Shown: positions 3,077 to 40,933, numbered from the stretch's first letter. The stretch is 47,257 bases of DNA from Deltaproteobacteria bacterium (GCA_029261775.1 JAJDAR010000298.1:1-47257); one strand, 5' to 3'. Made by a program: numbers and translations. Notes: generated from the letters alone by a model not told the origin.

Positions 3077-3125
3077 GGTTCTTCCTCTTGGGAAGCGGGC
3101 GGCACACCGCCCGCATCATGCGAGA

Positions 3126-4244: not shown

Positions 4245-4262
4245 GACGGCCCCCGCCCCGAC

Positions 4263-5263: not shown

Positions 5264-5322
5264 GTGCCTTCCTCCGGTTCTGGTCGGAGCCTTCGCCCCG
5301 TGGGTTCGTGCCGAGCCGCGCC

Positions 5323-21822: not shown

Positions 21823-21823
21823 G

Positions 21824-22570: not shown

Positions 22571-22583
22571 GCTGGACTCGTGC

Positions 22584-24542: not shown

Positions 24543-24581
24543 CAAGGAGCTCCTCGCCGGCCCGTCAGGCGGGGCGGCGCT

Positions 24582-25379
24582 TCAGTCGGTGTAGGGCGCC
24601 CAGCGGGGCTTGCGCTTCTCGAAGAACGACTTCGGACCTTCGAGCTGGTCCGGGTGGTCGGCATGGGCCTCGAGCTGTTCGTACGCCCGGTCCAGCCCCT
24701 CCTCGAGCCCGTGGTCGAGGCTCTCCCAGATCGCGCGCTTGCTGCGGGCCAGCGCGGTGGGCGAATGCTCGGAAATCTTCGCGGCCAGCTCGCGCGCGCG
24801 GGGCATCAGCTCGACCGCAGGGAGGATCTCGCCGATCAGGCCCACCCGCAGTGCCTCTTCGGCTCCCATCCGCTCCGCTCCACCCAGCAGCGTGAGTCGG
24901 AACACGGTCTCGAGCGGGATCCTGCGCGAGAGACCCACCGGCTCGAGGCCTGCGACGGTTCCCACCTTGACGTGGGTATCGAAGAAGGTCGCGGTGTCGG
25001 CCGCGATCACGAGCTCGCTGTCCGCCACGAAGTGGAAGCCGCCGCCGACACACATGCCGTTGATGGCCGTGATCACCGGCTTCCAGCAGCGGTTCTGGAG
25101 GGCGGTGATCTGGCTGTAGGGCGCTTCCTGGCGGGGGACCTTCGCGAACTTCTGGCTGTCTCCCGCCGCCGTCGAGCTGATGTCCCAGCCCGTGCAGAAG
25201 GCCTTGTCGCCGGCGCCGGTCACGATCACGCAGACGACGTCATCGTCGCTCTTGATCTCGTTCCAGAGCCGGCGCAGCTCCATCGCCATGTCGTAGTCGA
25301 AGGCGTTGCGCGCGGCCGGGTTGTCGAGCGTGATCGTGGCGAAGCGCTCGCTCTTCTCGTATCGGACCTTGTCGCTCAA
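24582..25379 (-). CDS. Crotonase-fold enoyl-CoA hydratase/isomerase
   Basis: GAGDKAFCTGWD, KPVITAINGMCVGGG, F.EKRKP; His at both catalytic positions (GFHF, FDTH). TTG start after GAGGAGAGG. Confidence 0.9.
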   Translation of the reverse strand: MSDKVRYEKSERFATITLDNPAARNAFDYDMAMELRRLWNEIKSDDDVVCVIVTGAGDKAFCTGWDISSTAAGDSQKFAKVPRQEAPYSQITALQNRCWKPVITAINGMCVGGGFHFVADSELVIAADTATFFDTHVKVGTVAGLEPVGLSRRIPLETVFRLTLLGGAERMGAEEALRVGLIGEILPAVELMPRARELAAKISEHSPTALARSKRAIWESLDHGLEEGLDRAYEQLEAHADHPDQLEGPKSFFEKRKPRWAPYTD

Positions 25380-25428
25380 CGACCTCTCCTCGCAATGCAA
25401 GGTTGAAAGGAACGTCCCCCTTCCGGGT

Positions 25429-26403
25429 TCAGGCGGCGAGGCGGGCGGCGACGCGTTCGGCGTGGGTCGGGATGGTGCCGAAGGCGTTCTCGAGCACGAA
25501 GGTGCGCTTGAGGTAGTAGTGCGGGGGCAGCTCCCAGGTGTAGCCCATGCCGCCGTAGATCTGGACGCACTTGCGCGCGTTGTGCATGGCCGCCTCGCCG
25601 GCGACCACCTTGGCCGAGGAAACGGCGCGTACGACGTCGCCGACGGTCGGATCGTCGAGGGTCGCGCCCGCCGCGTAGACCGCGTAGCGCGCCTGGCTCG
25701 CCTTCACGTAGCAGTCCGCCAGGAGGTGCTTGATCGCCTGGAAGGAGCCGATCGGGCGGTCGAACTGCTCGCGGGTCCTGGCGTATTCGGTGGCGTAGTC
25801 GAGGGTCAGCTCGGCGATGCCGAGCATCTGCGCGGCGGCCAGCAGGGCACCCTCCACCGCGAAGCGCTCGGCGTCGTCGGCCCCGGCGATTCGCTCGCCC
25901 TTCGGCAGCTCCGAGACGTGGAGCATCGGCGTCAGGGGGTCGAGCGGGATGCCGACCGGCCGCCCCTCGAGGCTCGTCGCTTCCACGCGATCGATGCCGT
26001 CGCTCCTCAGCAGGAGCAGCACGTCGAGGTCCGCTCCGTACTCGACCAGGAGCGGGTCCGAGCTCGGGTGCGTGAGATCCAATCCGCCGACCACGGTCTC
26101 GCCGGTCGCCGAGCCAGCGACCAGGGAGGCGGCGAGGTGGCTCCAGATCAGCGGGCCCGGCACCAGCCGCCGGCCGAGCTCCTGGAAGGCGATCGCTGCC
26201 TCGACCATGCCGAGCTCCACCCCGCCCTCGGCCTCGGGCAGGCGCAGCGCGAACACGCCCATCTCGGCGAGCTCGCTCCAGGCTTCGCGCGTGAACGGCT
26301 GCTTCTCGATCTCCGGCACACGGTCGAACCCGTACCGGCCCTCGACGAAGGACCGCAGGCCCTCCTGCAGCGCGAGCTGGTCTTCGTTCGGCTGGAAGTC
26401 CAC
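25429..26403 (-). CDS. Acyl-CoA dehydrogenase, short beta-type subunit
   Basis: YA.TREQFDRPIGSFQAIKH, GGMGYTWE...H.YLKR; no SEP..GSD motif. Confidence 0.9.
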   Translation of the reverse strand: MDFQPNEDQLALQEGLRSFVEGRYGFDRVPEIEKQPFTREAWSELAEMGVFALRLPEAEGGVELGMVEAAIAFQELGRRLVPGPLIWSHLAASLVAGSATGETVVGGLDLTHPSSDPLLVEYGADLDVLLLLRSDGIDRVEATSLEGRPVGIPLDPLTPMLHVSELPKGERIAGADDAERFAVEGALLAAAQMLGIAELTLDYATEYARTREQFDRPIGSFQAIKHLLADCYVKASQARYAVYAAGATLDDPTVGDVVRAVSSAKVVAGEAAMHNARKCVQIYGGMGYTWELPPHYYLKRTFVLENAFGTIPTHAERVAARLAA

Positions 26404-26421
26404 GGAGGCTCCTCGCCGCGC

Positions 26422-27615
26422 CTAGCGCGGCTCCTTGGGCAGCTTGAGGATGCGTTCGGAGATGATGTTTCGCTGGATCTGCGAGCTGCCCGCCGCGATC
26501 GTCAGCGAGAGCGTGTTCAGGAACTTGTCGACGATGCGCTCGCTCGGGAGATCCGGGCCCACGTCCTCGCGCACCAGACCGGCGCGGCCGAGCAGCCGGG
26601 TGCCGGTCTCGTAGATGCGCTGGTTCAGCTCGGTGAAGCCGAGCTTGATCGCCGAGCCGTCGAGACCCGGAATGCCGGTCTTCGCCGTCTCCGAGATCGA
26701 GAACTTGATCCACGCCCAGAGTGACTCGACCTCGGCGGAGAGGTGACCGATCTCCTGACGCAAAGCCCTGTCGTCCCAGGCCGCCGCGTCGTCGCGGGTG
26801 ATGCGTTTGGCGAGCCGCGCCAGCTCCTCGAGGAAGCTCTGCAGCTCGATGATGTCCGCAGCCCAGGCGCTGCCCCGCTCGAAGCGCAGGGTGACGTTCG
26901 TGATGCGCCAGCCGTCGTTCTCCGCGCCGACCAGGTTCTCGGCGGGGATCCACACGTCCTGGAGGAAGACCTCGCTGAAGTCGATCTCCCCGAGCAACGT
27001 CGGCAGCGGCCGGATCTCGATCCCGTCGAGATCCATGGGCATGATCATCCAGCTGATGCCGCGATGCTTCGGCGCGTCGGGGTTGGTGCGCACCAGCAGC
27101 TCGCAGTACTCGGCCGCATGGGCGAAGGAGGTCCAGATCTTGTGGCCGTTGACCACGTAGTGGTCGCCGTCGCGCACCGCCGTCGTCGAGAGGGAGGCCA
27201 GATCGGACCCGGAGTTCGGCTCCGAGAAGCCCTGGCACCAGACCTCCTCGCCGCGCAGGATCCGGGGCAGATGGGTGGTCTTCTGCCGCTCGTCGCCCTC
27301 GGCGATCACGGTCGGGCCGCCATGGCGGATGCCGACGAAGTTCATGCCGATGTAGGGCGCCCGCGCCCGGGCCATCTCCTCGTAGTAGACGAGCTCCTCG
27401 GTGAGGGTGGCGCCGCGCCCGCCGTACTCCTTGGGCCAGTTGACGCCGGCGTAGCCCGCATCGAACAGCTTGCGCTGCCAGCCGGTGTCGTACTCGCGCC
27501 GCGCCGCCCAGTCCTCGCGACCGGGCGGATCCCCGTGCTTCGGGACCTCCTCTGCGAACCAGTCGCGCAGCTCGCGGCGGAACTTCTCGTCGGCTTCGGA
27601 GTATCGGAGATCCAC
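26422..27615 (-). CDS. Acyl-CoA dehydrogenase, alpha-type subunit
   Basis: WCQGFSEPNSGSDLASL, NGHKIWTS.A, KHRGIS, TLRFERG, TIAAGSSQIQRNII.ER.L.LP.EP. Confidence 0.93.
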   Translation of the reverse strand: MDLRYSEADEKFRRELRDWFAEEVPKHGDPPGREDWAARREYDTGWQRKLFDAGYAGVNWPKEYGGRGATLTEELVYYEEMARARAPYIGMNFVGIRHGGPTVIAEGDERQKTTHLPRILRGEEVWCQGFSEPNSGSDLASLSTTAVRDGDHYVVNGHKIWTSFAHAAEYCELLVRTNPDAPKHRGISWMIMPMDLDGIEIRPLPTLLGEIDFSEVFLQDVWIPAENLVGAENDGWRITNVTLRFERGSAWAADIIELQSFLEELARLAKRITRDDAAAWDDRALRQEIGHLSAEVESLWAWIKFSISETAKTGIPGLDGSAIKLGFTELNQRIYETGTRLLGRAGLVREDVGPDLPSERIVDKFLNTLSLTIAAGSSQIQRNIISERILKLPKEPR

Positions 27616-27620
27616 GGCAT

Positions 27621-27650
27621 TACGATACTCCGCGTATCGTTATTGAGCAA
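27621..27650 (-). promoter_or_regulatory. Sigma70-like promoter TTGCTC-N17-TATCGT with overlapping palindromic operator ACGATAC-N5-GTATCGT (27622-27640)
   Basis: Minus strand reads TTGCTC aataacgatacgcggag TATCGT aatgcc GTG; same palindrome as at 6560-6578. Confidence 0.75.
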
Positions 27651-27663
27651 GGGCGAGAGCCGC

Positions 27664-28500
27664 TCAGCCCAGGTACGCCGCGTAGTCGTCGAGAACCGGC
27701 ATCACCTCGTCCCGCGGCCCCGACGGGATCCGCAACGCCACCTCGGTCATCCCGTTCTCGGCGTAGTACGCGAGCTTCGCCTCGTCGGGAAACACCCCGA
27801 ACGGAACGAAGTGCAGCGCCGCGAAGTCGCGCTTCGCCTCGTCCATCGCCCGTCGCAGCGCCTCGAGGGCCTGCTTCATCCCGGCCCCTCCGATCGGCAT
27901 CCAGCCGTCGCCGTACTCGGCGATCTGGCGGAAGAGCGTGGGGCCCGGTGCGCCGCCCAGCAGGACCGGCGGCCGCGGCTGCTGCACGGGCTTGGGCCAC
28001 ATCCAGCTCGGCTCGAAGCGCACGAACTCGCCCTGGTAGGAGGCCTCCTCCTTCGACCACAGCTCCTGCATGGCCAGCATCACCTCGCGCACGTGGGCAC
28101 GGCGACGCTTCGGGTCGATGCCGTGGTTCTCCATCTCCTCGTGGTTCCAGCCGAAGCCGATCCCGAGCACGAAGCGGCCCCCGGAGATCCAGTCGATGCT
28201 GGCGATCGTCTTCGCCAGGGCGATCGGGTCGTGCTGGGCGACCAGCGCGATGCCGGTGCCGAGCCGCAGCCGTTCGGTCACCGCGGCAGCCGCCGCCAGG
28301 GCCACGTAGGGGTCGGGGCTGCGGCGATACTCCTCGCCGAGGGTGGGCGTCCCGGTGGGTGCCGGCGTCCGGCGGCTCGAGGGGATGTGGGTGTGCTCGG
28401 GCAGGTAGAGCGAGTGGAAGCCGCGGGCCTCCGCCTCCCGGGCCAGATCCACGGGGGACATGGCGAGGTCGGTGGCATGGAAGGCGAGACCGATCTTCAC
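27664..28500 (-). CDS. LLM-class F420-dependent oxidoreductase (Rv2161c/TIGR03619-like)
   Basis: EHTHIP.SR.TP, DP.VAL..AAAVT, LAK.IAS.D..SGGR..LG.G.GWN.EE, PKP.Q.P.PP, GDGW.P. Confidence 0.9.
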   Translation of the reverse strand: MKIGLAFHATDLAMSPVDLAREAEARGFHSLYLPEHTHIPSSRRTPAPTGTPTLGEEYRRSPDPYVALAAAAAVTERLRLGTGIALVAQHDPIALAKTIASIDWISGGRFVLGIGFGWNHEEMENHGIDPKRRRAHVREVMLAMQELWSKEEASYQGEFVRFEPSWMWPKPVQQPRPPVLLGGAPGPTLFRQIAEYGDGWMPIGGAGMKQALEALRRAMDEAKRDFAALHFVPFGVFPDEAKLAYYAENGMTEVALRIPSGPRDEVMPVLDDYAAYLG

Positions 28501-28606
28501 GGCGAACCTCGGGTGACAGGCCGTCGGGCGGGCGGGATCATTGGCCGAAGCCGACCCGACCGCAAGCGGACCCCGCCCCTGCCTGACGCCCGGGGGTGGA
28601 GCTATC

Positions 28607-28620
28607 TAGAACATGTTCTA
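28607..28620. promoter_or_regulatory. Perfect 14-bp palindrome TAGAACATGTTCTA matching the KstR operator consensus TnnAACnnGTTnnA
   Basis: AT-rich palindrome in the divergent intergenic region between the LLM gene and the IOR gene. Confidence 0.7.
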
Positions 28621-28658
28621 ATTTTCGCCTGCCGCGCCCCGCGGCCCCGGGAGACCCC

Positions 28659-31600
28659 ATGCCCCCCGTCGATCGGAGCTACGAGCTCGCGCACCGCTAC
28701 ACCCGGCAGCGCGGGCGGGTCTACCTGAACGGGGTGCAGGCCCTGGTGCGGCTTCCGCTGCTCCAGAAGGCCCGCGACGAGGCCGCCGGCCTCGACACCG
28801 CCGGCTTCATCTCCGGCTATCGGGGCTCGCCGCTCGGCACCTACGACATGGCGCTCTGGCAGGCCAAGGACCTGCTCGAGGCGAACGCGATCCGCTTCGA
28901 GCCGGGCGTGAACGAGGACCTGGCCGCGACCGCCGTCTGGGGCACCCAGCAAGCCGCCCTCCACCCGACCTCGCGACACGATGGGGTGTTCTCGATCTGG
29001 TACGGCAAGGGCCCGGGCGTCGACCGCTCCCTCGACCCGATCAAGCACGGCAACTACATGGGAACGGCGCGCCACGGCGGCGTGCTCGCCTTGTGTGGCG
29101 ACGACCCGGGCGCGAAGTCGTCCTCGATCGCCCACCAGAGCGAGCAGGCCCTGATCCACGCAGGCATTCCGATCCTCAACCCGTCGAACGTCCAGGACTA
29201 CCTCGACCTCGGCCAGTACGGCTTCGCGCTGTCCCGCTACTCCGGTTGCTGGGTCGGCTTCAAGTGCCTCACCGACACCGTCGACAGCGGCGCTTCGGTC
29301 GAGGTCGACCCCGACCGTGTGCAGCTCGTCGACCCCGACTTCGCGTTTCCCGACGCGGACCACCACGTCACGATGACCAACACCCTGGTGCTGATCGAGA
29401 CGCAGCTCTACCAGGTCAAGCTCCCGTCCGCGCAGGCCTTCGTGCGCGCGCACGGCCTCGACCGGGTGATCTGGGCCGGCGAGCGCAAGCGCCTCGGGAT
29501 CGTGACGACCGGCAAGGCCTACCTCGACGTGCGCCAGGCGCTGGCCGAGCTCGGCCTCGACGAGGGGCGCGCCGCAGAGCTCGGGCTGGCCCTCTACAAG
29601 GTCGCGATGCCGTGGCCGCTGGAGCCCGAGGGCGCGCGCGAGTTCTGCGCGGGGCGCGAGGACGTGCTCGTCGTCGAGGAGAAGCGACCGATCGTCGAGG
29701 AGCAGCTCGCCCGGCTGCTCTACAACCAGTCCCAGCGGCCCCGGCTGCTGGGCAAGCGCGACGAGCAGGGAGCTCCCCTGCTCTCGGAGGTCGGCGAGCT
29801 CGCACCCGCCGCCGTGCGCGAAGCCATCCGCAGCTGGCTCGTCTCGCGCATCCCCGAGATCGCCTCCTCCCTGCGGCCGGCACCGGTCCCTGCGCTGGTG
29901 GCGTCGCCGGGCCAGCTGACCCGGCTGCCGAGCTTCTGCTCCGGCTGCCCGCACAACAGCTCGACGGTCCTGCCCGAGGGCTCGACCGCGATGGGTGGCA
30001 TCGGCTGCCACGGCATGGCCACCTTCTTTCCCGAGCGACGCACCTACGGCGCGACCCACATGGGTGGTGAGGGCTCCAACTGGATCGGCCAGGCCCCGTT
30101 CATCGACATGCCCCACGTCTTCCAGAACATGGGCGACGGAACCTACTTCCACTCGGGGCTGCTCTCGATCCGCGCCTGCGTGGCCGCGGACGTCAACATC
30201 ACGTTCAAGATCCTGGTCAACGGCGCGGTCGCCATGACCGGCGGCCAGCCGATCGAGGGCGAGCCGATGGACGGCGAGATCACCTGCCCGGAGATCGCCC
30301 GGCAGCTCCTGGCCGAAGGCGTGAAGCGGGTCGTCGTGCTCTCGAACGAGCCGGACAAGTACGAGCGCGGCGCCTTTCCCAAGGGCGTGAGCATCCACGA
30401 CCGGGCGGAGCTGATCGCCGTGCAGAAGCAGCTCCGCGAGAACCCCGGCGTGACCGCGCTGCTCTACGACCAGACCTGCGCCGCCGAGGCGCGCCGCCTG
30501 CGCAAGCGCGGCGAGTTCCCGGACCCCGATCGGCGCATCGTGATCAACGAGCTGGTCTGCGAGGGCTGCGGCGACTGCAGCGTGCAGTCCAACTGCATCT
30601 CGATCGAGCCGGTCGAGACCGAGTTCGGTCGCAAGCGTCGGATCAACCAGTCCTCCTGCAACAAGGACTACTCCTGCCTGCAGGGCTACTGCCCGAGCTT
30701 CGTCTCGGTCGAGGGCGGTCGCTTGCGCCAGGCCGAGACCGAGACCGTGGGCGCGAACGAGCGGGGCCTGTTCGACGGACTGCCCGAGCCCGAGCTTCCG
30801 GATCTGGAGACCCCCTTCAACGTGCTGGTCGCGGGGATCGGCGGCACCGGCGTGGTCACGATCGGGGCGGTGCTGAGCATGGCGGCCCACCTGGAGGGCA
30901 AGGGCGCATCCGAGCTCGACGTCACGGGACTGGCGCAGAAGAACGGCCCGGTCACGAGCCACGTCCGCATCGCGGCCCGCCCCGACGCACTGCATGCCAC
31001 CCGCATCGGTGTCGCGGGCGCGGACACGGTGATCGGTTGCGACCCCGTCGTCACCACGAACCCCGAGAACCTGCCGAAGATCGCGACGAACACGACCGTC
31101 GTCCTCAATCGCCACGTCGCACCCACCTTCGAGTTCGCGCTCAATGCCGACCTCGACCTGTCGTCGCAAGGGATGGAGGAAGCGGTGCGCCAGGCCGCCG
31201 GCGAAGCCAACGCGCACGTCGTCCCCGCCACCGAGTGGGCCACGGCGCTGCTCGGGGACGCCATCGCGACCAACCTGTTCCTGCTGGGCTTCGCCTGGCA
31301 GCTCGGGCGCATCCCGGTCAGCCGGGAGTCCCTCGATCGGGCGATCGAGCTGAACGGTCGGGCCGTGGAGCTCAACCGAAGGGCCTTCGCCTGGGGGCGG
31401 CTGGCGGCGCATGATCCCGCCGCCGTCGAGCAGCGCGTGAAGCCCTTGCTGCGAGGTGCCGAGACCGCACCGGCGCAGCAGGATCTCGAATCCCTGATCG
31501 CGACGCGCGTCCCTTTCTTGACCGACTACCAGAGCGCCAGCTATGCCAGGCGCTACGAGCGGCTCGTTCGCCAGGTGGCCGAGCGGGAGCACGCGACGAC

Positions 31601-32132
31601 GGGCAGTGACGACCTGGCGCGCGCAGTGGCCCGCTACTACTTCAAGCTCCTGGCCTACAAGGACGAGTACGAGGTCTCGCGCCTCTACACCGACGGCGCC
31701 TTCCTGGAGCAGATCGAGCAGCAGTTCGAGGGCGAGCCCAAGTTGTCCTTCCACGTGACGATGCAGTTCGTCCCCGAGTGGCTGATCAAGCGGGACCCGG
31801 ACACCGGCCGCTCGCCCAAGTGGACCTTTCCGAAGGGCTTCATGGTCGCGGTGTGGAGGACCATCCGCGCCTTCAAGTTCCTGCGCGGGACCCCCTTCGA
31901 CCCCTTCGGTCGCACGGCCCACCGCAAGATGGAACGCCAGCTGATCGTCGACTACGAGAAGACCGTCGAGGAGCTGCTCGAGGGGCTGGACCGCGAGACC
32001 CTGCCGATCGCCGTCGAGATCGCCTGCCTGCCGGAGCTGATTCGCGGCTACGACACCGTCAAGGAGCGCCATTTCGAAGAGGCGATGTCGAAGCAGCACG
32101 AGCTGCTCGACCTGTTCCGCCGGCGGTCCTGA
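28659..32132 (+). CDS. Indolepyruvate:ferredoxin oxidoreductase family protein (fused alpha-beta)
   Basis: SGYRGSPLG, NEDLAAT.VWGTQ, WYGKGPGVDR, FCSGCPHN, TPP motif GDGTY.HSG, ferredoxin CEGCGDC..C..C, G.GGTGV, GLAQK.G, AYKDEYEV.RL. Confidence 0.95.
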   Translation: MPPVDRSYELAHRYTRQRGRVYLNGVQALVRLPLLQKARDEAAGLDTAGFISGYRGSPLGTYDMALWQAKDLLEANAIRFEPGVNEDLAATAVWGTQQAALHPTSRHDGVFSIWYGKGPGVDRSLDPIKHGNYMGTARHGGVLALCGDDPGAKSSSIAHQSEQALIHAGIPILNPSNVQDYLDLGQYGFALSRYSGCWVGFKCLTDTVDSGASVEVDPDRVQLVDPDFAFPDADHHVTMTNTLVLIETQLYQVKLPSAQAFVRAHGLDRVIWAGERKRLGIVTTGKAYLDVRQALAELGLDEGRAAELGLALYKVAMPWPLEPEGAREFCAGREDVLVVEEKRPIVEEQLARLLYNQSQRPRLLGKRDEQGAPLLSEVGELAPAAVREAIRSWLVSRIPEIASSLRPAPVPALVASPGQLTRLPSFCSGCPHNSSTVLPEGSTAMGGIGCHGMATFFPERRTYGATHMGGEGSNWIGQAPFIDMPHVFQNMGDGTYFHSGLLSIRACVAADVNITFKILVNGAVAMTGGQPIEGEPMDGEITCPEIARQLLAEGVKRVVVLSNEPDKYERGAFPKGVSIHDRAELIAVQKQLRENPGVTALLYDQTCAAEARRLRKRGEFPDPDRRIVINELVCEGCGDCSVQSNCISIEPVETEFGRKRRINQSSCNKDYSCLQGYCPSFVSVEGGRLRQAETETVGANERGLFDGLPEPELPDLETPFNVLVAGIGGTGVVTIGAVLSMAAHLEGKGASELDVTGLAQKNGPVTSHVRIAARPDALHATRIGVAGADTVIGCDPVVTTNPENLPKIATNTTVVLNRHVAPTFEFALNADLDLSSQGMEEAVRQAAGEANAHVVPATEWATALLGDAIATNLFLLGFAWQLGRIPVSRESLDRAIELNGRAVELNRRAFAWGRLAAHDPAAVEQRVKPLLRGAETAPAQQDLESLIATRVPFLTDYQSASYARRYERLVRQVAEREHATTGSDDLARAVARYYFKLLAYKDEYEVSRLYTDGAFLEQIEQQFEGEPKLSFHVTMQFVPEWLIKRDPDTGRSPKWTFPKGFMVAVWRTIRAFKFLRGTPFDPFGRTAHRKMERQLIVDYEKTVEELLEGLDRETLPIAVEIACLPELIRGYDTVKERHFEEAMSKQHELLDLFRRRS

Positions 32133-32145
32133 GGCGGCGCGGGCT

Positions 32146-32769
32146 TCAGCGCACCCAGGGCAGCACGCGGGCGCGCAGCCGCTCGGAGAGGCCCGGCGTC
32201 ACGTCCTCCTCGAAGTCATCGATGCCGAAGGTGAGCTGCAGCTCGCCGGGCGCGTGCTCGATCGAGAGCAGTCGCGTCTCCTCGGTGAGCGGCGGCAGGG
32301 GCAGGTAGGTCCGGAACAGCGAAGCCACGTAGTTGGGCACGCCCATGATCGAGGCGCGCCGCGGCTGCAGCACGAACCAGCCTCCCACGACCTGGAGCCC
32401 GGCTTCGATCTCTCCCACCGGGAAGCCCGCGATCTCGGTGTGGACCGAGAGGCTCCGCGAGCCCAGCTCCAGACGGAAGGGCAGCCGGAAGCGCTTGACC
32501 CACGCGTCGACCGCAGATTGCCCGACCGCCACCACGACCCGCGGTCGCTTGACCGCGATGTGCGCCGGCAGGCCCGGGCTGAAGCTCGCATGGTCGGCGA
32601 GCACGACCACGCGCTCGAGCGGCAGCCAGGCCGTGGCGAGGCCCTGGAACTCGAGCCGTGGCCCGGCGAAGGAGCCCCGCAACGAGTCCGCCGTGCTTCC
32701 CTGCCAGCTCGCCCGGACCGGGCGCTTCAAGAAGGTGCTGGCGACGCTGTCGATCGCATCCGAACGCAT
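32146..32769 (-). CDS. Hypothetical protein (possible LmeA/DUF2993-like beta-rich lipid-binding fold)
   Basis: GGAG SD; last gene of the WS/DGAT operon; pattern of beta strands and a terminal LPL.PL...RL..IE....L.L segment. Fold assignment is tentative. Confidence 0.65.
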   Translation of the reverse strand: MRSDAIDSVASTFLKRPVRASWQGSTADSLRGSFAGPRLEFQGLATAWLPLERVVVLADHASFSPGLPAHIAVKRPRVVVAVGQSAVDAWVKRFRLPFRLELGSRSLSVHTEIAGFPVGEIEAGLQVVGGWFVLQPRRASIMGVPNYVASLFRTYLPLPPLTEETRLLSIEHAPGELQLTFGIDDFEEDVTPGLSERLRARVLPWVR

Positions 32770-32824
32770 GGCGCTCTCCGGCTCCGGTCCTTCGGCTGCG
32801 AGCGACCCGAGGTCGGGCCCGTGG

Positions 32825-33295
32825 CTAGCGGCGGCTCGTCTTTCGCGCCGTCTTCTTGCGTCCCGTGGTCTTGCGTGCCGTCTTCTTGCGTCCCGTGGTC
32901 TTGCGTGCCGTCTTCTTGCGAGCGGTCTTCTTGCGTGCCGTGGTCTTGCGTGCGGCCTTCTTGCGTGACGTCGTCTTGCGCCCGGTCTTCTTCTTCGCCG
33001 CGGCCTTGCGGGTGGTCTTCTTGCCGGCGGGCTTGGGCTCGACGGCCTTCTCCAGCCGGCGGATCAGCTTGGCCGCGTCGCTCCGGACCTGGCGCTCCAG
33101 GCGCGCCCAGCGTGCTTCGCGCTCGGCGCGGGCCTGCTCGACCTGCTTCTGCAGCGACTTCAAGTTGTTGCGGAGGTCGCGAACCAGGGTGCGTGCGTTC
33201 GAGGGCAGCTGGCGCTCCAGGTTGCGCAGCGTGTCTTCCAGGCCTCGGTTGGCTCGCGAGGTCTTCTTGCGGGTCGCGCGTTGGCGGGCTGCCAT
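32825..33295 (-). CDS. Coiled-coil protein with histone H1-like Lys/Arg/Thr-rich tail (PhaF/MLDS-like architecture)
   Basis: Amphipathic heptad region (about aa 18-85) followed by about 12 RK(K/T)T(A/G)-type pentapeptides; ATG overlaps the WS/DGAT stop (TGATG). Confidence 0.85.
   Translation of the reverse strand: MAARQRATRKKTSRANRGLEDTLRNLERQLPSNARTLVRDLRNNLKSLQKQVEQARAEREARWARLERQVRSDAAKLIRRLEKAVEPKPAGKKTTRKAAAKKKTGRKTTSRKKAARKTTARKKTARKKTARKTTGRKKTARKTTGRKKTARKTSRR
32847..33023. repeat. 15-bp coding tandem repeat (about 12 degenerate units)
   Basis: gccgtcttcttgcgt / cccgtggtcttgcgt units encoding the basic pentapeptide tail; includes an exact 30-bp duplication. Confidence 0.9.
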
Positions 33296-34728
33296 CAGAT
33301 CGGATCCTCCGGGTGGGGTGCGGTCTCCGCCGGGCGGAGGGGCACCGAGTGATCGATGCCGGCAGCTTCCTTCAGCTCCTCGAGAGCGAGGGGAATGCCA
33401 TCGGCCAGGAACCAGGGATCCGGCACCAGTTCGGGGTCGACCGTCACGCCGAAGTCCACGCGATCGACGTAGCTGACGACCGTGATGTTGAGACCCATGC
33501 CGGGCAGGATCAGGCTCATCGGGTAGGTGGCCTCGAGTCGCCCGCCCGCCATGTAGAGGGGAACCGGCGGACCCGGAACGTTCGAGACCACCGCGTTGGC
33601 GCCGATCGGCATCGAGGCCGCCGTGGACGAGATCATCCGGTAGGCGAGGTTCAGGACGGCCGGTGCCACCGTGTCCCCCATCGCCTGGATGTCGCGGGCG
33701 CGCATCGCCTCGGACATCTCCTTGGCCTGGAGGGTGTTCTCGTGGATCGTGCGCAGGCGCTCGACCGGGTCGTCGATGTCCGTGGCCCAGGACACCATCA
33801 TGCTGCCGACCTGGTTGCCCAGGTCCTTGTCGCCGGCACCGCGGGTGGACACCGGGACGGAGACCACGAGCGACTCGGCGGGAAGCTCACCCTGCGCCTC
33901 GAGGTATCGCCGCACGGCAGAGCCGCACAGCTCGAGCACGACGTCGTTCACCTTGACGTCGAAGTGCTTCTTCATCGCGCGGATGTCCGAGAGGCTGACC
34001 GTGCTCCAGGCGACGGCACGGCGCGTGCCGATGTCGCCATTGAACGAGACCTTGGGAATGCTCGCGCCGAGCGCGGACTCACGCGCGTAGGGGAGCGCGG
34101 CCAGTCCCCGCCGGGCCGCCTGGCCGACGTAGCGCGCGACGCGGAGCGGCGTGCCGAAGCTGTGCCAGAGCCCGCCGAGGTAGAGCTCGAAGTCCGAGGG
34201 ATCCCGTTCGGCGCGAGCCGCGGGACGCTGCGGTCCCTCGTCGCGAGGCGCCGGATCCGGCTCGAGGTCGCACAGCAGCTCCGTGAGGCCGACGCCTGAC
34301 ATCCCGTCGATCAGGCAGTGGTGCGTCTTGCTGAAGAGGGCGACGCGTCCGCCCGCGAGGCCTTCGATCCACCACATCTCCCACAAGGGACGCGAGCGAT
34401 CGAGCTTCGGGGAGTAGAGATCTGCGACCAGCGCGGCGAGCTCGCGGAGCCCTCCCGGCGAAGGAACGGCAACGCGCCGCAAGTGGCGGGTGACGTCGAA
34501 GTCCGGGTCCTGCACGAAGTAGGGCCGGTCCAGGCCCAGCGGCACTTCGCGCAGCTTGGCGGTGAAGCGCGGCGCCTGCGCGACCCGCCCGGCGGCTTCT
34601 CGCACGAAACGCTCGTAGCCGAAGCTCTCGCTGACGGGCTCGAGCACGGTGACGCCACCGATGTGGGCGTGGGTGGTCGCCGTCTCCATGGAGAGGAAGA
34701 TCGCGTCGCTTCCCGACAGCTGTTGCAT
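33295..34728 (-). CDS. Wax ester synthase/diacylglycerol acyltransferase (WS/DGAT)
   Basis: LSG.DA.FL..ET, LDRSRPLWE, catalytic HHCLIDG, VNDVVL, VSNVPGP..PLY..G, GLNITV.SY. Confidence 0.95.
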   Translation of the reverse strand: MQQLSGSDAIFLSMETATTHAHIGGVTVLEPVSESFGYERFVREAAGRVAQAPRFTAKLREVPLGLDRPYFVQDPDFDVTRHLRRVAVPSPGGLRELAALVADLYSPKLDRSRPLWEMWWIEGLAGGRVALFSKTHHCLIDGMSGVGLTELLCDLEPDPAPRDEGPQRPAARAERDPSDFELYLGGLWHSFGTPLRVARYVGQAARRGLAALPYARESALGASIPKVSFNGDIGTRRAVAWSTVSLSDIRAMKKHFDVKVNDVVLELCGSAVRRYLEAQGELPAESLVVSVPVSTRGAGDKDLGNQVGSMMVSWATDIDDPVERLRTIHENTLQAKEMSEAMRARDIQAMGDTVAPAVLNLAYRMISSTAASMPIGANAVVSNVPGPPVPLYMAGGRLEATYPMSLILPGMGLNITVVSYVDRVDFGVTVDPELVPDPWFLADGIPLALEELKEAAGIDHSVPLRPAETAPHPEDPI

Positions 34729-34828
34729 GGCCCGGCTTCTCCCTTCCCTCCCCCCTCGAGCATTGTCGGCTCCCTGCACGCCACCGCAAGGCAAGCGCCG
34801 TCGGTTTTCGGTGCGGAACGCCATCTTG

Positions 34829-34846
34829 GAACGACCGTTCGAACGG
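34829..34846. promoter_or_regulatory. Overlapping palindromes GAACG-AC-CGTTC (34829-34840) and CCGTTCGAACGG (34835-34846); candidate operator
   Basis: In the divergent region between the WS/DGAT operon and the esterase. Confidence 0.45.
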
Positions 34847-34979
34847 GCCTCGGGACGACCCGGGAACTGACGTCGGTTTCACCCGCCGGGCGCTGCCCTC
34901 GCCGAGCCCGCGCCCACCGAGAGCGCACCCGCGGATCGGCTTCTAGGATACGAGCGCCCTCTCTCCCATCGGAGCGCCC

Positions 34980-36194
34980 ATGCTGAACGGTTCCCTGCAC
35001 CCCGACTTCGCCGACGTGGCCCGGAGCCTGGCCCGGATCCTCCCGAAGAAGGGTCCCGGCGGAGCCGCCGCCTGCGTCTACCACCGCGGCGAGAAGGTCG
35101 TGGACATCTGGGGCGGGACCCGCAACCGCAAGGGTGACCCCTGGGAGGAGGAGACCCTCTCCATCTCCTTTTCGACGACCAAGGGCGTCGCGTCGACCTT
35201 GCTTCACGTCTACGCCGATCGGGGAAAGCTCGACCTCGACGAGCCGGTGGCGACGTGGTGGAGCGAGTTCGGCGCCGCGGGCAAGGAGGCCATCACGGTC
35301 CGGCAGCTGATGTGTCACGAGGCGGGGCTGTATGCGATCGCGGACGTCGTGGATCACGCCCGAGACATGCTGGACTGGGACGGCATGGCCGCGCGCCTGG
35401 CCGCCGCGACTCCGCGCCATCCGGCCGGCGCCGCCCACGGCTATCACGCGATGACCTACGGCTGGCTCGTCGGCGAGCTCGTGCGACGGGTGGCCGACAT
35501 GAAGCCCTTCCCCGAGCTGCTCGAGAGCGAGCTGGCCCGGCCGCTGGGTCTCACCGGGCTCTACTGCGGCGTGCCTGCCGATCAACAGACGCGTTGCGCA
35601 GAGCTGATGGCCGCCGGCATGGAGGGCACGCCGGACGAGCAGAAGCGGCGCACCGCGAACGTGCGTGAGCGAGCCGTTCGCTGGCGCGATCGCCTGTCCC
35701 GCGTGGGCGTGCGCTGGGACCCGACCGAAGCGATCGACGCCCTCGTGGCACCGGAGATGCACGAGCTCGACTTCAACGGCGAAGCGTTCCGCGCCGCCTC
35801 CATCCCCGCGGCCAACGGCATGTTCACCGCGCGTTCCCTGGCGCGGCTCTACGCCTGCCTGGCCGGCGGCGGGGAGCTCGACGGAGTTCGGCTGCTCTCG
35901 TCCGAAGCCGTGTGGCGCGCGAGTCAGGAGCAGAACCGGGGCGTCGGCCGCGTGATCCCCGTCTCGATGCGCTGGAGGCTCGGCTACCACCGGGTCTTCG
36001 CACTGCGCGCCAAGGTGCCGGCCGGCTTCGGACACTTCGGTTTCGGTGGCTCCGGAGCCTGGGCCGACCCGACCCGCCAGCTCTCGGTCGCCCTCACCGT
36101 GAACAGTGGGGTCGGAACTCCCTTCGGCGACACGCGGATCGCCCGCCTCGGAGGCGCCGCCGTGCGCTGCGCCGATCGGCGGATGCGCCGCTAG
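34980..36194 (+). CDS. Serine hydrolase, beta-lactamase fold (family VIII esterase/lipase-like)
   Basis: VVD.WGG, FSTTK (SxxK), W.EFG..GK..IT, GYHA.TYG, FGH.GFGGS..WADP. Confidence 0.92.
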   Translation: MLNGSLHPDFADVARSLARILPKKGPGGAAACVYHRGEKVVDIWGGTRNRKGDPWEEETLSISFSTTKGVASTLLHVYADRGKLDLDEPVATWWSEFGAAGKEAITVRQLMCHEAGLYAIADVVDHARDMLDWDGMAARLAAATPRHPAGAAHGYHAMTYGWLVGELVRRVADMKPFPELLESELARPLGLTGLYCGVPADQQTRCAELMAAGMEGTPDEQKRRTANVRERAVRWRDRLSRVGVRWDPTEAIDALVAPEMHELDFNGEAFRAASIPAANGMFTARSLARLYACLAGGGELDGVRLLSSEAVWRASQEQNRGVGRVIPVSMRWRLGYHRVFALRAKVPAGFGHFGFGGSGAWADPTRQLSVALTVNSGVGTPFGDTRIARLGGAAVRCADRRMRR

Positions 36195-36319
36195 GCGCCG
36201 CGGGATCGCCTCACAGGGCAGCTCGCCTTCGAGGGCGAACCCCCCCACGCCGTGGGCTGCGACGATCGGCGGTCAAGCAGGACCCCCGGATGCCCGAATC
36301 GTCGGAGCGGGAGACGGGC

Positions 36320-38362
36320 GTGCTGCTGCCGATCGGCCACGACGAAAGCAATGTCCGGCGTTGGCCGTGGGTGACCTTCGCGCTGATGGCGCTGTGCATG
36401 CTCACGCTGGTCGCCACTGGCACGACGACCTGCGACGGCTCCCTCCCCGAATGGGAAGCCCGCGTCCAGGCCGAGCTCGCCGAGGTCGAGGACGAGGCGG
36501 ACTACGAGCCGCCGCCGACCCCCTATCACGTCTGGGGCTTGATTCCGTCCGAGATCCGCATGTCGAGCGTGCTCACCCACCAGTTCATGCACGCGGGCTG
36601 GCTGCACCTGTTCGGCAACATGCTGCTGCTCTTCCTGCTCGGCCCACCGATCGAGGATCGCTGGGGCCGACCGGTCTTCCTCGGTCTGTACTTGAGCGGC
36701 GGCGTCTTTGCGGGCCTGTTCTTCGCCGCCATGGCCTCGAGCGCGACGATCCCGCTGGTCGGCGCTTCGGGCGCGATCGCCGCGGTGATGGGCGCCTATC
36801 TGGTCCGGCTCTTCCACAGCAAGCTCCGCTACTTCTACTTCTTCTTCATCCGGATGGGCACCTTCGAAGCCCCTGCCTACCTGATGCTGCCGCTCTGGTT
36901 CTTCGGCGAGCTGTGGAGCGCCAAGCTCTCCGACTCCGTCGGCGCCCAGGGCGGTGTCGCGTATTGGGCCCATGTCGGCGGTTTTCTCTATGGCACCGCG
37001 TTCGCCGGCCTGATCCGCGCCTTCCAGATCGAGAGCCGCTTCTTGAAGCATCGGCTCGAGCAGCGCCTGACGCTGGTGGCGGGCAACCCGATCGTTCAGG
37101 AGATCCAGGGCCTGCAGCAGGAGGGTCGCTTCGAGGAGGCCTTCGAGCGTCTGCAGCGCGAGATGCGGCGAACTCCGGAGGACCCGGACGTGGTGATCGC
37201 CACCTGGGACGCCGCGTCCGCCTTGCAGCGACCCCACGAGATCGCCGGCCCGCTCACCCAGCAGATCGAGCGTTGGGTGGCGCGGGACGAGATGCAGTCG
37301 GCCGCCGACTACTGGTGCGAGCTCACCCTGCTCGTGCCCGACGCGCCGACGGACCCGAAGGTGCTGCTCGCGGTGGCGCGGCGCCTGGACGAGGACGACC
37401 GCGCCCTCGAGGCGCGTCGCGCCCTGGGCCATGCGCTTCGCCACGGGGCCAGCGACCTGAGTCCCGGGCTGGCCCTGCGCTTCTTCGAGATCGCGCGCAC
37501 GCGCGCACCGGAGCTCGCCCCCGACGCGGGGCGGCGTGCCCTCGAGTGGGATCAGCTCCCGGACGAGCGTCGCCGCGATCTGGAGAACCAGCTCGCCGAG
37601 GCGGATGCCCGACGCGCCATGAGCACCGGACCGGAGGTCGCACCCCGAGCGCACGGTTGGCGGGGCGCCTCCCAGCGCGCCCTCGACATCGATCTCGGTC
37701 CCGCGGCCGAGCTCGAGCTCGAAACCTCGGCAGAGCGCTTCGGCAGGACGAGCCCCGACCTCGCCGAGCCCGAGCCGCCCGCCTCCCCGCCCGTCGACGG
37801 GCCGCCGGGTGTGGACCCGCGCGAGAGTCCCGAGCCGCCGGGTGTGGACCCGCGGGAGAGCCCCGAGCCACCTCCCCGGGCCGAGCGGCGCGAGAGTCCG
37901 GAGCCCAGACCCGCACCGCCCGCCGCGGCGTTGGGGAGCGGTCCGCGGATCCGCGAGATCAAGGCGGTCGACGCGGTTCCGCGTGCGCTCGAGGCGGAGG
38001 GTCTCGTGGTCCGGCGCGACGACAAGCTCCATCGGATCCCCTGGTCGCGGATCGAGGCGATCGGCGTCGGCGCGGTGCATGGCGTCGAGGCACGCCCGGT
38101 GCTGCTGATCGACCTCGTGCTCGACTGGAACGACCCGCAGGCCGAGACCCTGCAAGTCGTCCGGCTGTCGAGCCACCGCTACGACCCTCGGCGACTGGCC
38201 CCCGGCATCGACGATCCCATGCAGGCCTTCCACGCGCTGGTGCGGGAGCTGCTCGAACGCAGCCGGGCCACACCGCTGCCCGACGCGGCCTCCCTGTCCG
38301 GCCCGTTGTCGACCTACCCGGATCTGGGGCTGTACGAGTCGCTGGTCCTCGACGCGCAGTAG
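36320..38362 (+). CDS. Rhomboid family intramembrane serine protease with a long C-terminal extension
   Basis: FMHAGWLHLFGNM, GASG (catalytic Ser), AYWAHVGG (His); then a helical-repeat region, a Pro-rich linker and a C-terminal domain. Start is GTG 36320 (GGAG SD) or ATG 36290. Confidence 0.88.
   Translation: MLLPIGHDESNVRRWPWVTFALMALCMLTLVATGTTTCDGSLPEWEARVQAELAEVEDEADYEPPPTPYHVWGLIPSEIRMSSVLTHQFMHAGWLHLFGNMLLLFLLGPPIEDRWGRPVFLGLYLSGGVFAGLFFAAMASSATIPLVGASGAIAAVMGAYLVRLFHSKLRYFYFFFIRMGTFEAPAYLMLPLWFFGELWSAKLSDSVGAQGGVAYWAHVGGFLYGTAFAGLIRAFQIESRFLKHRLEQRLTLVAGNPIVQEIQGLQQEGRFEEAFERLQREMRRTPEDPDVVIATWDAASALQRPHEIAGPLTQQIERWVARDEMQSAADYWCELTLLVPDAPTDPKVLLAVARRLDEDDRALEARRALGHALRHGASDLSPGLALRFFEIARTRAPELAPDAGRRALEWDQLPDERRRDLENQLAEADARRAMSTGPEVAPRAHGWRGASQRALDIDLGPAAELELETSAERFGRTSPDLAEPEPPASPPVDGPPGVDPRESPEPPGVDPRESPEPPPRAERRESPEPRPAPPAAALGSGPRIREIKAVDAVPRALEAEGLVVRRDDKLHRIPWSRIEAIGVGAVHGVEARPVLLIDLVLDWNDPQAETLQVVRLSSHRYDPRRLAPGIDDPMQAFHALVRELLERSRATPLPDAASLSGPLSTYPDLGLYESLVLDAQ
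37801..37872 (+). repeat. 33-bp coding tandem repeat (PPGVDPRESPE x2 plus a degenerate third copy)
   Basis: gccgccgggtgtggacccgcg(c/g)gagag(t/c)cccga occurs twice in tandem. Confidence 0.85.
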
Positions 38363-39682: not shown

Positions 39683-40933
39683 TCAGCCGATCACGCCACC
39701 GCTGCGCAACGCCTCGATCTCCTGGTCGGAGAGATCGAGCTCGGCCCGCAACACCTCTTCCGTGTGCTCGCCCAGGCGCGGAAACGAGCCCACGGGACCC
39801 TCGGCGAGACGGGACATCTTGACCGGATTGCCGACAGTCAGATAGGGGCGATCGCTGTCGGGGCGCGGAACCTCGATCAACATGTCCCGCAAGGCCACGT
39901 GGGGATCGGCGTGGATGTCGGCGGCCGTATGGCTCGGGCCGGCGACGATTCCCTGGGCGCCGAGCGCCTCGCAGGCCTCGAGGCGCGTCTTGTCCGCCGC
40001 CCAGGCCTCGAGGGCGGGGCGGATCACGCCGTCGGTGTGCGTGGCCCAGCCGGTGCGCTCCGCGAAGCGCGGATCCGAGAGCCACTCGGGGTGGCCGATC
40101 GTGTGACACAGCTTCTCGAACATGTGCTCGCGAAACACGGCCACCACGAAGAAACCGTCCCGTGCCCGGAAGGCGGCGACCAGGGCCGTGCTGCCGGCCG
40201 ACGCCATGTGCGCGGGTGCGCCCATCGACCACAGGAACGGGACCATGTCCGCCATCGCAATCATCGAGTCGTACATGGCCACGTCGACGTGCTGCCCCAA
40301 TCCGGTGCGCTCGCGGTGCCGAAGCGCGGCGAGCGTGCCGATCACGGAGAACAGCGCCGCTGCGTTGTCACCTAGCGCGCCGGCCACGACCACGGGCGGC
40401 GGAGCATCGCCGCGACGGTTCGGCTCGTAGAGACCGCCCATGGCCTCCGCGATCGGCGCATAGGCGGGCCATGCGGCGTAGGGAGAATCGGTCAGGTTCC
40501 CGAAGCCCGAGAGCGACACGTAGACCAGGCCGGGGTGCAGCGCGGCGAGCTCCTCGTAGCCGAGGCCCATCGCCTGCATCGAGCCGGCGCGGAAGTTCTC
40601 GGCGACGACGTCGAAGTGGGGAACCAGCCGGCGGAACACCTCGCGTCCCTGATCCGTCTTCAGATCGAGGGCCACGCTCTTCTTCGAGAGATTGTGGCGC
40701 AGGAAGGTCGCACCGACCTTTCGCCCGTCGTCGTCCGTCAGGAAAGGATGGGAGGCGCGGCCGGTGTCCCCGCGCTCCGGGTGCTCGACCTTCACGACCT
40801 CCGCGCCGAGATGGGACATCAGCTGGGTCGCGAAGGGCAACGCCTGCATCTGCTCGGCGGCGAGGATGCGCACCCCCTCGAGCGGCTTGCCCCACGCCCC
40901 GCGCTCCGGATGATGGACCTCGCCGACTCGCAT
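39683..40933 (-). CDS. CaiB/BaiF family III CoA-transferase
   Basis: PLEGVRIL, LGAEVVKVEHP..GD..R, ENFR.G, SGFG, LGD, GQHVDVAM.D, P.LGEHTEEVL. Confidence 0.93.
   Translation of the reverse strand: MRVGEVHHPERGAWGKPLEGVRILAAEQMQALPFATQLMSHLGAEVVKVEHPERGDTGRASHPFLTDDDGRKVGATFLRHNLSKKSVALDLKTDQGREVFRRLVPHFDVVAENFRAGSMQAMGLGYEELAALHPGLVYVSLSGFGNLTDSPYAAWPAYAPIAEAMGGLYEPNRRGDAPPPVVVAGALGDNAAALFSVIGTLAALRHRERTGLGQHVDVAMYDSMIAMADMVPFLWSMGAPAHMASAGSTALVAAFRARDGFFVVAVFREHMFEKLCHTIGHPEWLSDPRFAERTGWATHTDGVIRPALEAWAADKTRLEACEALGAQGIVAGPSHTAADIHADPHVALRDMLIEVPRPDSDRPYLTVGNPVKMSRLAEGPVGSFPRLGEHTEEVLRAELDLSDQEIEALRSGGVIG

Follow-up and report, generated by a model that had tools for sequence, protein, structure and literature searches.

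The window examined here is a stretch of 47,257 nucleotides labelled Deltaproteobacteria bacterium (GCA_029261775.1, JAJDAR010000298.1:1-47257). It is contig C298 of the metagenome-assembled genome (MAG) G000, which comprises 5.33 Mb in 578 contigs and is 93% complete. On the minus strand of the window a gene for a wax ester synthase/diacylglycerol acyltransferase (WS/DGAT) is closely packed with two open reading frames (ORFs) for proteins of 156 and 207 amino acids (aa). The first of these proteins is strongly basic and the second is a putative relative of the lipid-binding protein LmeA; a gene for a family VIII esterase diverges from the three. We propose, with a probability of roughly 0.5, that these three genes and the esterase gene constitute a neutral-lipid-body module that recurs in uncultured Myxococcota-type bacteria, with the basic protein at the droplet surface. 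That all three genes are functionally linked to neutral-lipid storage in some way seems rather probable.

The stop codon of the WS/DGAT gene (TGA, 33297-33295) has its A in common with the start codon of the basic-protein gene (ATG, 33295-33293), and the sequence GGAGGA lies 9 nt 5' of this ATG. The junction between the two genes is an ATGA overlap, judged from coordinates, in two other loci (L041 and L066). A gap of 55 nt separates the stop of the basic-protein gene from the 207-aa ORF, the ATG of which is preceded by GGAG repeats. The G+C content of the window is ~70%, and the G+C content at third codon positions is 0.88-0.93 for all three ORFs; since they also have conserved homologues, they are more than chance reading frames. 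The original prediction, made from the sequence alone, had described an intact WS/DGAT with the motif HHCLIDG, the TGATG overlap that starts the 156-aa protein and a 207-aa ORF with its own Shine-Dalgarno sequence. All of this was recovered; the WS/DGAT domains score above their cut-offs and the motif is present.

Among 61 genomes of the same order, 28 match the basic protein at E≤1e-3, many of them by the tail only. Nineteen basic-protein loci from these relatives were examined with flanks of ~8 kb. A WS/DGAT gene lies beside the basic gene in five of them (L041, L047, L049, L051 and L052), and three others end at a contig edge by the basic gene. A second set of 28 loci, from metagenomes, was found by the basic protein alone using a closer homologue set; 19 of these are close and nine are distant or partial. 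A WS/DGAT gene is located directly upstream of the basic gene in 13 of the 19 close loci (six co-directional, seven divergent). Five of the remaining close loci have <200 nt of upstream sequence and one has 978 nt and no WS/DGAT; hence 13 of the 14 informative loci contain the synthase gene directly upstream. The distant or partial loci have it in 0/9 cases. The 207-aa gene follows the basic gene in 9/19 close loci. In 40 loci from species-representative genomes that were centred on the 207-aa gene, a WS/DGAT gene occurs within one gene in 18 and the basic protein is encoded directly upstream in seven; six further loci with linked basic-protein and WS/DGAT genes were reached through the 207-aa protein. 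The original prediction had made its case depend on such linkage elsewhere, and each of these collections contains it. The loci collected are all from MAGs or metagenome contigs, with no cultured carrier among them. By our estimate a random gene would neighbour a WS/DGAT gene <1% of the time, given 2-16 copies per ~5-Mb genome. Phyletic co-occurrence is uninformative because 58 of the 61 relatives have a WS/DGAT. With 2-16 matches in each of these 58 genomes, the order is unusually WS/DGAT-rich for a Gram-negative-type group.

The WS/DGATs that accompany the basic protein belong to five paralogue types, which are 31-47% identical between types. Type a overlaps the basic gene from upstream (the window, L041 and L066), type b lies upstream, types c and d are divergent and type e is downstream. 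These arrangements define three linkage contexts: one formed by the a/c/d supercluster, one with type b upstream and one with type e downstream. L066 is the most complete locus; in it the esterase and the type c and d genes run one way and the type a, basic and 207-aa genes run the other way. Differential losses from a single ancestral supercluster can account for the a, c and d arrangements, with b and e as separate contexts.

In two loci, L077 and L088, the full divergent arrangement of WS/DGAT, basic and 207-aa genes occurs in MAGs titled Actinomycetota and Spirochaetales. The genes are 50-70% identical to the Myxococcota-type ones and mislabelling or mis-binning is the likely cause. The type a WS/DGAT gene upstream of the basic gene in L088 (5996-6613) is an internally deleted remnant of ~205 aa, in which the N-terminal 30 residues are joined to the C-terminal part; the basic and 207-aa proteins encoded downstream look intact.

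A different partnership was found in 22 loci labelled Gammaproteobacteria, Pseudomonadales or Azotimanducaceae. In 12 of them a convergent WS/DGAT gene is positioned immediately downstream of the 207-aa gene; these 12 loci have no basic protein and carry an OmpW-like gene upstream. The gammaproteobacterial WS/DGAT is 57-59% identical to the Myxococcota-type d enzyme and 37-40% identical to the other types, while the 207-aa protein is 51-57% identical between the Myxococcota-type and the gammaproteobacterial MAGs (L064-L089, L096). On account of these identities the 207-aa gene and the type d WS/DGAT gene are regarded as a pair conserved in two phyla in different orientations. The fact that the 207-aa gene occurs in only nine of the 61 relatives and yet shows this degree of identity across phyla, as does its partner, suggests horizontal transfer of the pair.

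Architecture of the two unnamed proteins

The basic protein consists of a basic N-terminus (residues 1-13), an amphipathic helix built from 11-residue repeats and a polycationic tail that is predicted to be disordered. None of the Pfam or NCBIfam models scores above its cut-off. The nearest model, HC2 (PF07382), reaches 30.1 bits against a cut-off of 40 and covers the tail only; the tail also gives a sub-threshold match to a Burkholderia H1-like model (E 0.0015). A Pfam search of the N-terminal half at E≤10 returned only sub-threshold, coiled-coil-like rows, including Perilipin (PF03036; 15.4 bits, cut-off 33 bits, E 0.01), and these were rejected as chance matches. The phasin profiles PF05597, PF09361 and PF09650 were not matched at E≤10 by the N-terminal half or by the whole protein.

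The protein does have relatives. A word-based search with residues 1-95 found seven proteins, and a profile of 29 homologues retrieved 309 at E≤1e-3 from 8000 scored candidates. Nearly all of these, where named, are called 'hypothetical protein' and only one carries a precomputed Pfam domain. A protein-atlas search with residues 1-92 resulted in unnamed clusters only, with a best score of 0.89. PDB sequence searches gave nothing relevant and no DNA-binding fold was detected. The family alignment has a conserved basic start of the type M-x-A-R-K-K, a motif L-E-x-x-L-P-x-N-L and a core that ends in a conserved L-L-R-R-L-E-K-A-V-x-P, followed by basic tails that vary in sequence and length. The 156-aa protein belongs to a real, unnamed family. 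The gene is single-copy in G000. In another genome of the order (G009), near-identical copies are present on two contigs with different flanks (L043:4852-5316 and L044:148-612), which are either a duplication or an assembly or binning duplicate.

The conserved hydrophobic residues of the core recur every 11 residues (19, 30, 41, 52, 63, 74 and 85), with more at +4 and +7, so that residues 19-85 form six 11-residue repeats with hydrophobic positions 1, 5 and 8. At 11/3 residues per turn the hydrophobic moment of this segment is 0.521 (z 5.1), a value that none of 5000 shuffles reached; at the heptad value of 7/2 it is 0.101 (z -0.6). The same holds for the family. We scored the 97 of 146 members with a core envelope of ≥55 aa, the 49 shorter ones being dropped; z(11/3) exceeds 3 in all 97 (median 5.5) and z(7/2) exceeds 3 in none. 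The median peak angle is 98.5 degrees, compared with 98.2 degrees for 11/3. Distant members have an insertion of 22 alignment columns, which equals two 11-residue repeats. A Pro kink follows the first repeat and the polar face is highly charged and rich in Arg and Glu. The core thus has the helix periodicity of perilipins and apolipoproteins and not that of a heptad coiled coil. Helices with 11-mer repeats that adopt a 3-11 conformation are reported to bind droplets or lipoproteins in perilipins, apolipoproteins, alpha-synuclein and CCT-alpha (PMC5889406). The original prediction had spoken of an amphipathic coiled-coil N-terminal half. The amphipathic helix is there, but the coiled coil was not confirmed because the periodicity is 11/3 and not heptad.

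AlphaFold2 predicted helices at residues 14-29 and 32-85, with a mean predicted local distance difference test score (pLDDT) of 73.9 for the whole protein. Block means are 94-98 over residues 21-80 and 47-57 over residues 91-156, and residues 86-156 are predicted to be disordered. A Foldseek search of the model against the PDB gave a best E of 3.9.

The tail (residues 86-156) has a net charge of +34 and contains 31% K, 23% T, 18% R and 15% A. By eye it is made of 13 pentads of the type K-(K/T)-(T/A)-x-R, and Tandem Repeats Finder detects a 15-nt unit in 10.3 copies with 76% matches at 32839-32992. Both counts make the 'about 12 repeats' of the original prediction a fair description. Its notion of a different, Thr-rich kind of tail did not hold beyond the window. 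Over 146 family members the N-terminal flanks have medians of 23 aa and charge +9, and the C-terminal flanks medians of 37.5 aa and charge +10, with lengths of 7-98 aa. Summed over both flanks, the charge is +19 at the median and never falls below +5; 145/146 members reach at least +8. The C-terminal flanks are rich in A (21%), R (17%), K (14%) and P (12%), with only 8% Thr, and are near the Ala/Pro/Lys type. Hence the Thr-rich pentad array of the window is one extreme variant, and polycationic flanks at both ends are the family trait.

The 207-aa protein has 228 homologues at E≤1e-3. The 120 homologues listed are 52-96% identical and all named 'hypothetical'; their source MAGs carry the labels Myxococcota, Pseudomonadales and Gammaproteobacteria. 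The family is compact, as an exhaustive profile search yielded only 91 clusters at 50% identity. Its probable affiliation emerged through intermediates. The LmeA/DUF2993 profile PF11209 is matched by 9/35 close homologues (E≤1) and by 26/44 relatives found with the family profile (E≤0.01). When ten relatives were tested singly, six matched PF11209 and five did so above the gathering score of 27.3 bits. The best one, P0134, reaches 44.8 bits and covers profile positions 29-214 of 217; it is 35% identical to the protein of the window and matches its family profile with E 3.4e-42. Furthermore, LmeA occurs in 12% and 31% of the members of two neighbouring protein-atlas clusters. PDB sequence searches with the 207-aa protein gave nothing relevant, and a crude Kyte-Doolittle test found no N-terminal hydrophobic segment in the first 90 aa (maximal 18-residue mean 1.16). 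The gene is single-copy in G000, and this genome has no canonical PF11209 match. We consider the protein to be a divergent, signal-less branch of the LmeA/DUF2993 (TULIP-type) proteins that has been placed in a new context, an assignment that goes through sequence intermediates. It favours the original guess of an LmeA- or TULIP-like lipid-binding protein. LmeA is reported to bind phospholipids, and TULIP and Chorein-N lipid-transfer domains are predicted for such proteins (PMC7643837, PMC6791001).

Layout of the locus, the synthase, the esterase and neighbouring genes

Table 1. Features of the locus, with positions counted from the first nucleotide of the window.
Feature	Position	Strand	Basis
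WS/DGAT, 477 aa, HHCLIDG, type a paralogue	33295..34728	-	PF03007/PF06974/TIGR02946
TGATG stop/start overlap of WS/DGAT and basic protein	33293..33297	-	read directly
156-aa basic protein, unnamed family	32825..33295	-	profile of homologues
Residues 19-85 of basic protein, six 11-residue repeats	33041..33241	-	hydrophobic moment
Residues 86-156 of basic protein, predicted disordered polycationic tail	32828..33040	-	AlphaFold2 and composition
207-aa putative divergent LmeA/DUF2993-like (TULIP-type) protein	32146..32769	-	PF11209 matches in relatives
Family VIII esterase (class C beta-lactamase fold), LipL-like, S-T-T-K, divergent	34980..36194	+	PF00144
Intergenic region of 251 bp between divergent esterase and WS/DGAT, presumed promoter region	34729..34979		position

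The WS/DGAT scores 246.8 bits with PF03007, 128.2 bits with PF06974 and 460.7 bits with TIGR02946 (cut-off 309.95). Its counterparts at the corresponding position in L066 and L041 share 77% and 70% identity with it, respectively, and the motif HHxxxDG is kept in all 21 WS/DGAT homologues examined from neighbouring loci. The ORF could also open at 34824. The start listed in Table 1 is preferred because the Pfam domain begins at residue 4 from there and 22/22 aligned relatives start at that position. G000 encodes 13 PF03007 paralogues, none of which has a long fused polycationic tail; one has an 18-aa extension with a net charge of +6.

The esterase scores 210.6 bits with PF00144 and its best NCBIfam model is LipL (NF052353). 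Orthologues adjoin the module in 7/40 of the loci centred on the 207-aa gene and in 3/28 of the metagenome loci centred on the basic gene; they are 70-77% identical, or 47% in L063. The LipL-like esterase is therefore a frequent fourth member of the module, in line with its earlier description as a divergent associate.

A scan of 31900-35200 for sigma-70 consensus sequences found 0 promoter-like sites. The terminator scan of the same region found none within the module, nor a terminator-like hairpin between the stop of the 207-aa ORF and that of the gene next to it. The latter (28596-32132) is convergent with the module, with 13 nt between the two stops, and encodes a 2-oxoacid (indolepyruvate-type):ferredoxin oxidoreductase of 1178 aa, a fusion that contains TPP_enzyme_C, POR and DUF6537 domains. 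On the other side, at 36290-38362, there is a rhomboid protease domain (PF01694, 97 bits) with a C-terminal extension of ~440 aa, which includes a duplicated Pro/Glu-rich unit of the type G-V-D-P-R-E-S-P-E-P-P at about 37740-37870. The window is also rich in genes of fatty-acid and alcohol catabolism (20647-28500, 39683-40933 and also 1832-6501). They include three acyl-CoA (coenzyme A) dehydrogenases, two enoyl-CoA hydratases, a pyrroloquinoline quinone (PQQ) alcohol dehydrogenase (746 bits), a luciferase-like monooxygenase and family III CoA-transferases.

Proposed function and competing explanations

The module could work as follows. The WS/DGAT would make wax esters or triacylglycerol (TAG) at the membrane, and the stop/start overlap would cause the basic protein to be produced together with it. 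The 11-mer helix would then lie flat on the nascent lipid body, as do the helices of perilipin, apolipoprotein and alpha-synuclein, and the two cationic ends would hold the lipid body to a polyanion. The LmeA-like protein may bind lipid or transfer it between membrane and droplet, and the esterase may mobilise what is stored. A place for the basic protein at the droplet surface has about even odds.

The identity of the polyanion is more doubtful. The nucleoid is the leading candidate because of precedents in other storage systems, of which three are relevant here. In Pseudomonas putida the polycationic protein PhaF, located on polyhydroxyalkanoate granules, links the granule and its synthase to the nucleoid. 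The Lys-rich C-terminal tail of MLDS is reported to bind DNA without sequence specificity and to attach droplets to it (PMC5504291), and PhaM is reported to bind polyhydroxybutyrate, the synthase PhaC1, PhaP5 and DNA (PMC3556143). A nucleoid tether formed by the basic protein is an analogy with these cases, and DNA as the partner of its tails is possible but has the odds against it. Anionic phospholipid is the alternative, and it fits equally well with tails that are conserved in charge and not in sequence.

Several observations weigh against a dedicated module. Eleven of the 19 relatives' loci, among them one tail-only match and four distant members, have no WS/DGAT gene within ~8 kb. They include all four genomes of genus g11 and G003, a complete chromosome from the genus of the window. 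Their neighbours are heterogeneous: a methyltransferase, a protease, a CoA ligase, a histidine kinase, YdjC, cytochrome c, Hsp33 and two AMP-binding enzymes. In G003 a distance of 3.4 Mb separates the basic gene (4.68 Mb) from the 207-aa gene (1.33 Mb), and neither of them adjoins a WS/DGAT gene. Six of the nine relatives that have a 207-aa gene carry it more than 1.5 kb from the basic gene and from any WS/DGAT gene, and only one of the 13 WS/DGATs of G000 has such a partner. Moreover, the a, c and d arrangements perhaps derive from one ancestral supercluster, still whole in L066, and are therefore not independent events. Linkage of the module is thus facultative, not obligatory.

The proteins themselves add further points to this side. 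The hydrophobicity of the helix is low (Eisenberg means over 18 residues, -0.26 to -0.91), and its centre (residues 43-60) is almost purely charged, with a moment <0.2. An 11/3 periodicity is also a signature of right-handed coiled coils. The 207-aa protein of the window has no match in Pfam even at E≤10. Its AlphaFold2 model is confident and mostly beta (pLDDT 80.6, predicted template modelling score 0.76), but Foldseek found 0 PDB matches at E≤0.001. Weak rows for the lipid binders MucB/RseB, BPI, LBP and LolA-like proteins (E 0.02-0.08, TM score ≤0.2) were too weak to count. Finally, the functional steps proposed above are read from genes, architectures and linkage.

Four other explanations were considered. 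The basic protein may act on the synthase and not on the droplet, either as a specific adaptor or activator comparable to PhaM with PhaC1 or as a membrane-recruitment factor, which would position the WS/DGAT instead of coating lipid. In the recruiter form the cationic ends would bind anionic phospholipids of the inner membrane or the droplet monolayer, not DNA. The stop/start overlap suggests that the basic protein is produced together with the enzyme, it stays beside whichever WS/DGAT paralogue remains in the cluster, PhaM is reported to bind its synthase (PMC3556143), and both ends keep their cationic charge although they vary in sequence and length, as plain electrostatic binding predicts. 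However, partner types with only 31-47% identity are better explained by a product or surface that they share than by a specific protein-protein interface. Furthermore, the basic protein is intact in L088, where the type a enzyme is a deleted remnant, and at least ten loci of the family have no nearby WS/DGAT. Although we do not favour this explanation, we regard it as the most serious competitor.

It is less plausible that the basic protein is a general histone-H1-like nucleoid protein, found near WS/DGAT genes through shared starvation regulation and with no role at lipid bodies. The tail matches to HC2 and to the Burkholderia H1-like model would suit such a protein, one homologue carries the label H-NS in one source, and about half of the relatives' loci have no WS/DGAT neighbour. 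This explanation does not account for the WS/DGAT gene directly upstream in the informative metagenome loci, with varied paralogues and orientations. In addition, conservation within the family lies in the 11-mer amphipathic helix and not in the tail, and Pfam, PDB sequence and Foldseek searches detected no DNA-binding fold.

An oligomer held together by a right-handed (hendecad) coiled coil, serving as a cytoplasmic scaffold or as a binder of RNA or polyphosphate without any link to a lipid surface, is improbable. It would share the 11/3 periodicity and explain the low mean hydrophobicity and the narrow hydrophobic stripe of the helix, in which all 13 large hydrophobic residues of positions 32-85 fall within an arc of 140 degrees. 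Yet perilipin helices are reported to be weakly hydrophobic as well (PMC8064757), and a scaffold of this kind does not explain why its gene is linked to those for WS/DGAT and a lipid-binding protein. That the gene order is inherited synteny without functional meaning is very improbable: many linked loci do come from related MAGs and possibly from one ancestral cluster like that of L066, but the linkage has three separate contexts and the 207-aa/type d pair recurs in two phyla in different orientations.

The lipid-body module would matter for what it says about storage in little-known bacteria. To our knowledge, what is understood of bacterial lipid droplets comes almost entirely from Actinobacteria (MLDS/TadA, PspA), and for Gram-negative wax-ester or TAG bodies we know of no established coat or biogenesis protein. 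Here WS/DGAT is genetically linked to two conserved, nameless families, one of perilipin-like polycationic proteins and one of signal-less LmeA-like proteins. Both proteins are small and soluble. Should their roles be confirmed, they would explain the coating, lipid supply and positioning of droplets in such bacteria, and they would provide handles for engineering the production of wax esters or TAG. The occurrence of the LmeA-like protein beside one WS/DGAT clade in two phyla would extend the range of TULIP/Chorein-type proteins to the bacterial cytoplasm. A bolder interpretation, to which we give rather little credence, is that the cluster is a convergent bacterial counterpart of the eukaryotic droplet toolkit, i.e. 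a synthase, a perilipin-like coat, a cytosolic TULIP/Chorein-type transfer protein and a lipase, with the cationic ends of the coat fastening the droplet to the nucleoid. In that case the LmeA family would have its first cytoplasmic member in the 207-aa protein, which would also be the first lipid-transfer protein of bacteria to act at a storage droplet.

Comparison with known systems

For the enzymes and the lipid-binding protein the relevant systems are mycobacterial. The esterase resembles the family VIII esterases LipL and LipE in its beta-lactamase fold, its S-x-x-K motif and its best NCBIfam model; its 274 bits are far below the equivalog cut-off of 650. The 207-aa protein is probably homologous to LmeA (MSMEG_5785/Rv0817c; PF11209) across the whole domain through intermediates, although it is itself below the Pfam threshold. 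LmeA acts in the mycobacterial envelope, and canonical LmeA/DUF2993 proteins are reported to be exported or anchored via an N-terminal hydrophobic segment (PMC6791001, PMC7643837); in contrast, the 207-aa protein lacks such a segment and is paired with a WS/DGAT. A literature search joining 'wax ester synthase' with 'LmeA' found no paper. The main text of a review of lipid-inclusion proteins (PMC10699116) makes no mention of LmeA, DUF2993 or LipL. Likewise, Myxococcota do not appear in the main text of a metagenomic survey of WS/DGAT contexts (PMC10351704), the supplementary Pfam tables of which might list these neighbours.

The basic protein can be compared with three groups. MLDS of Rhodococcus jostii RHA1, TadA of R. 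opacus and mycobacterial HBHA are also small proteins with a helical N-terminal part, which targets droplets, and a basic C-terminal tail, and they are tied to neutral-lipid storage. The protein of the window also combines a helical N-terminal part with a basic tail, yet curated Pfam and NCBIfam models indicate no sequence relation, the sequences themselves not having been compared directly. The PAKKA motifs are absent and R/K-K-T-A pentads take their place, both ends are cationic and the helical part is a regular 11-mer repeat. Moreover, the basic-protein gene is coupled to the synthase, whereas mlds shares an operon with the regulator MLDSR, and the host is a Gram-negative-type lineage known from MAGs only. 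PhaM of Ralstonia eutropha and PhaF are similar in their cationic logic, since they join storage granule and synthase to the nucleoid; they differ in that their store is a polyester and not a neutral lipid, and neither PF05597 nor PF09361 is matched at E≤10.

The helices of perilipins, exchangeable apolipoproteins, alpha-synuclein and CCT-alpha share with the basic protein the 11/3 periodicity, here over ~67 residues, the low hydrophobicity and a net positive charge. There is no homology to perilipin, as the PF03036 score is below its cut-off and falls outside the repeat logic, and the basic protein is bacterial and much shorter, with a Pro kink and an Arg/Glu-rich polar face. Assigned to none of these groups by the curated models, it would have as its closest analogues by action MLDS/TadA/HBHA together with PhaM/PhaF for the tail, and perilipin and apolipoprotein for the helix.

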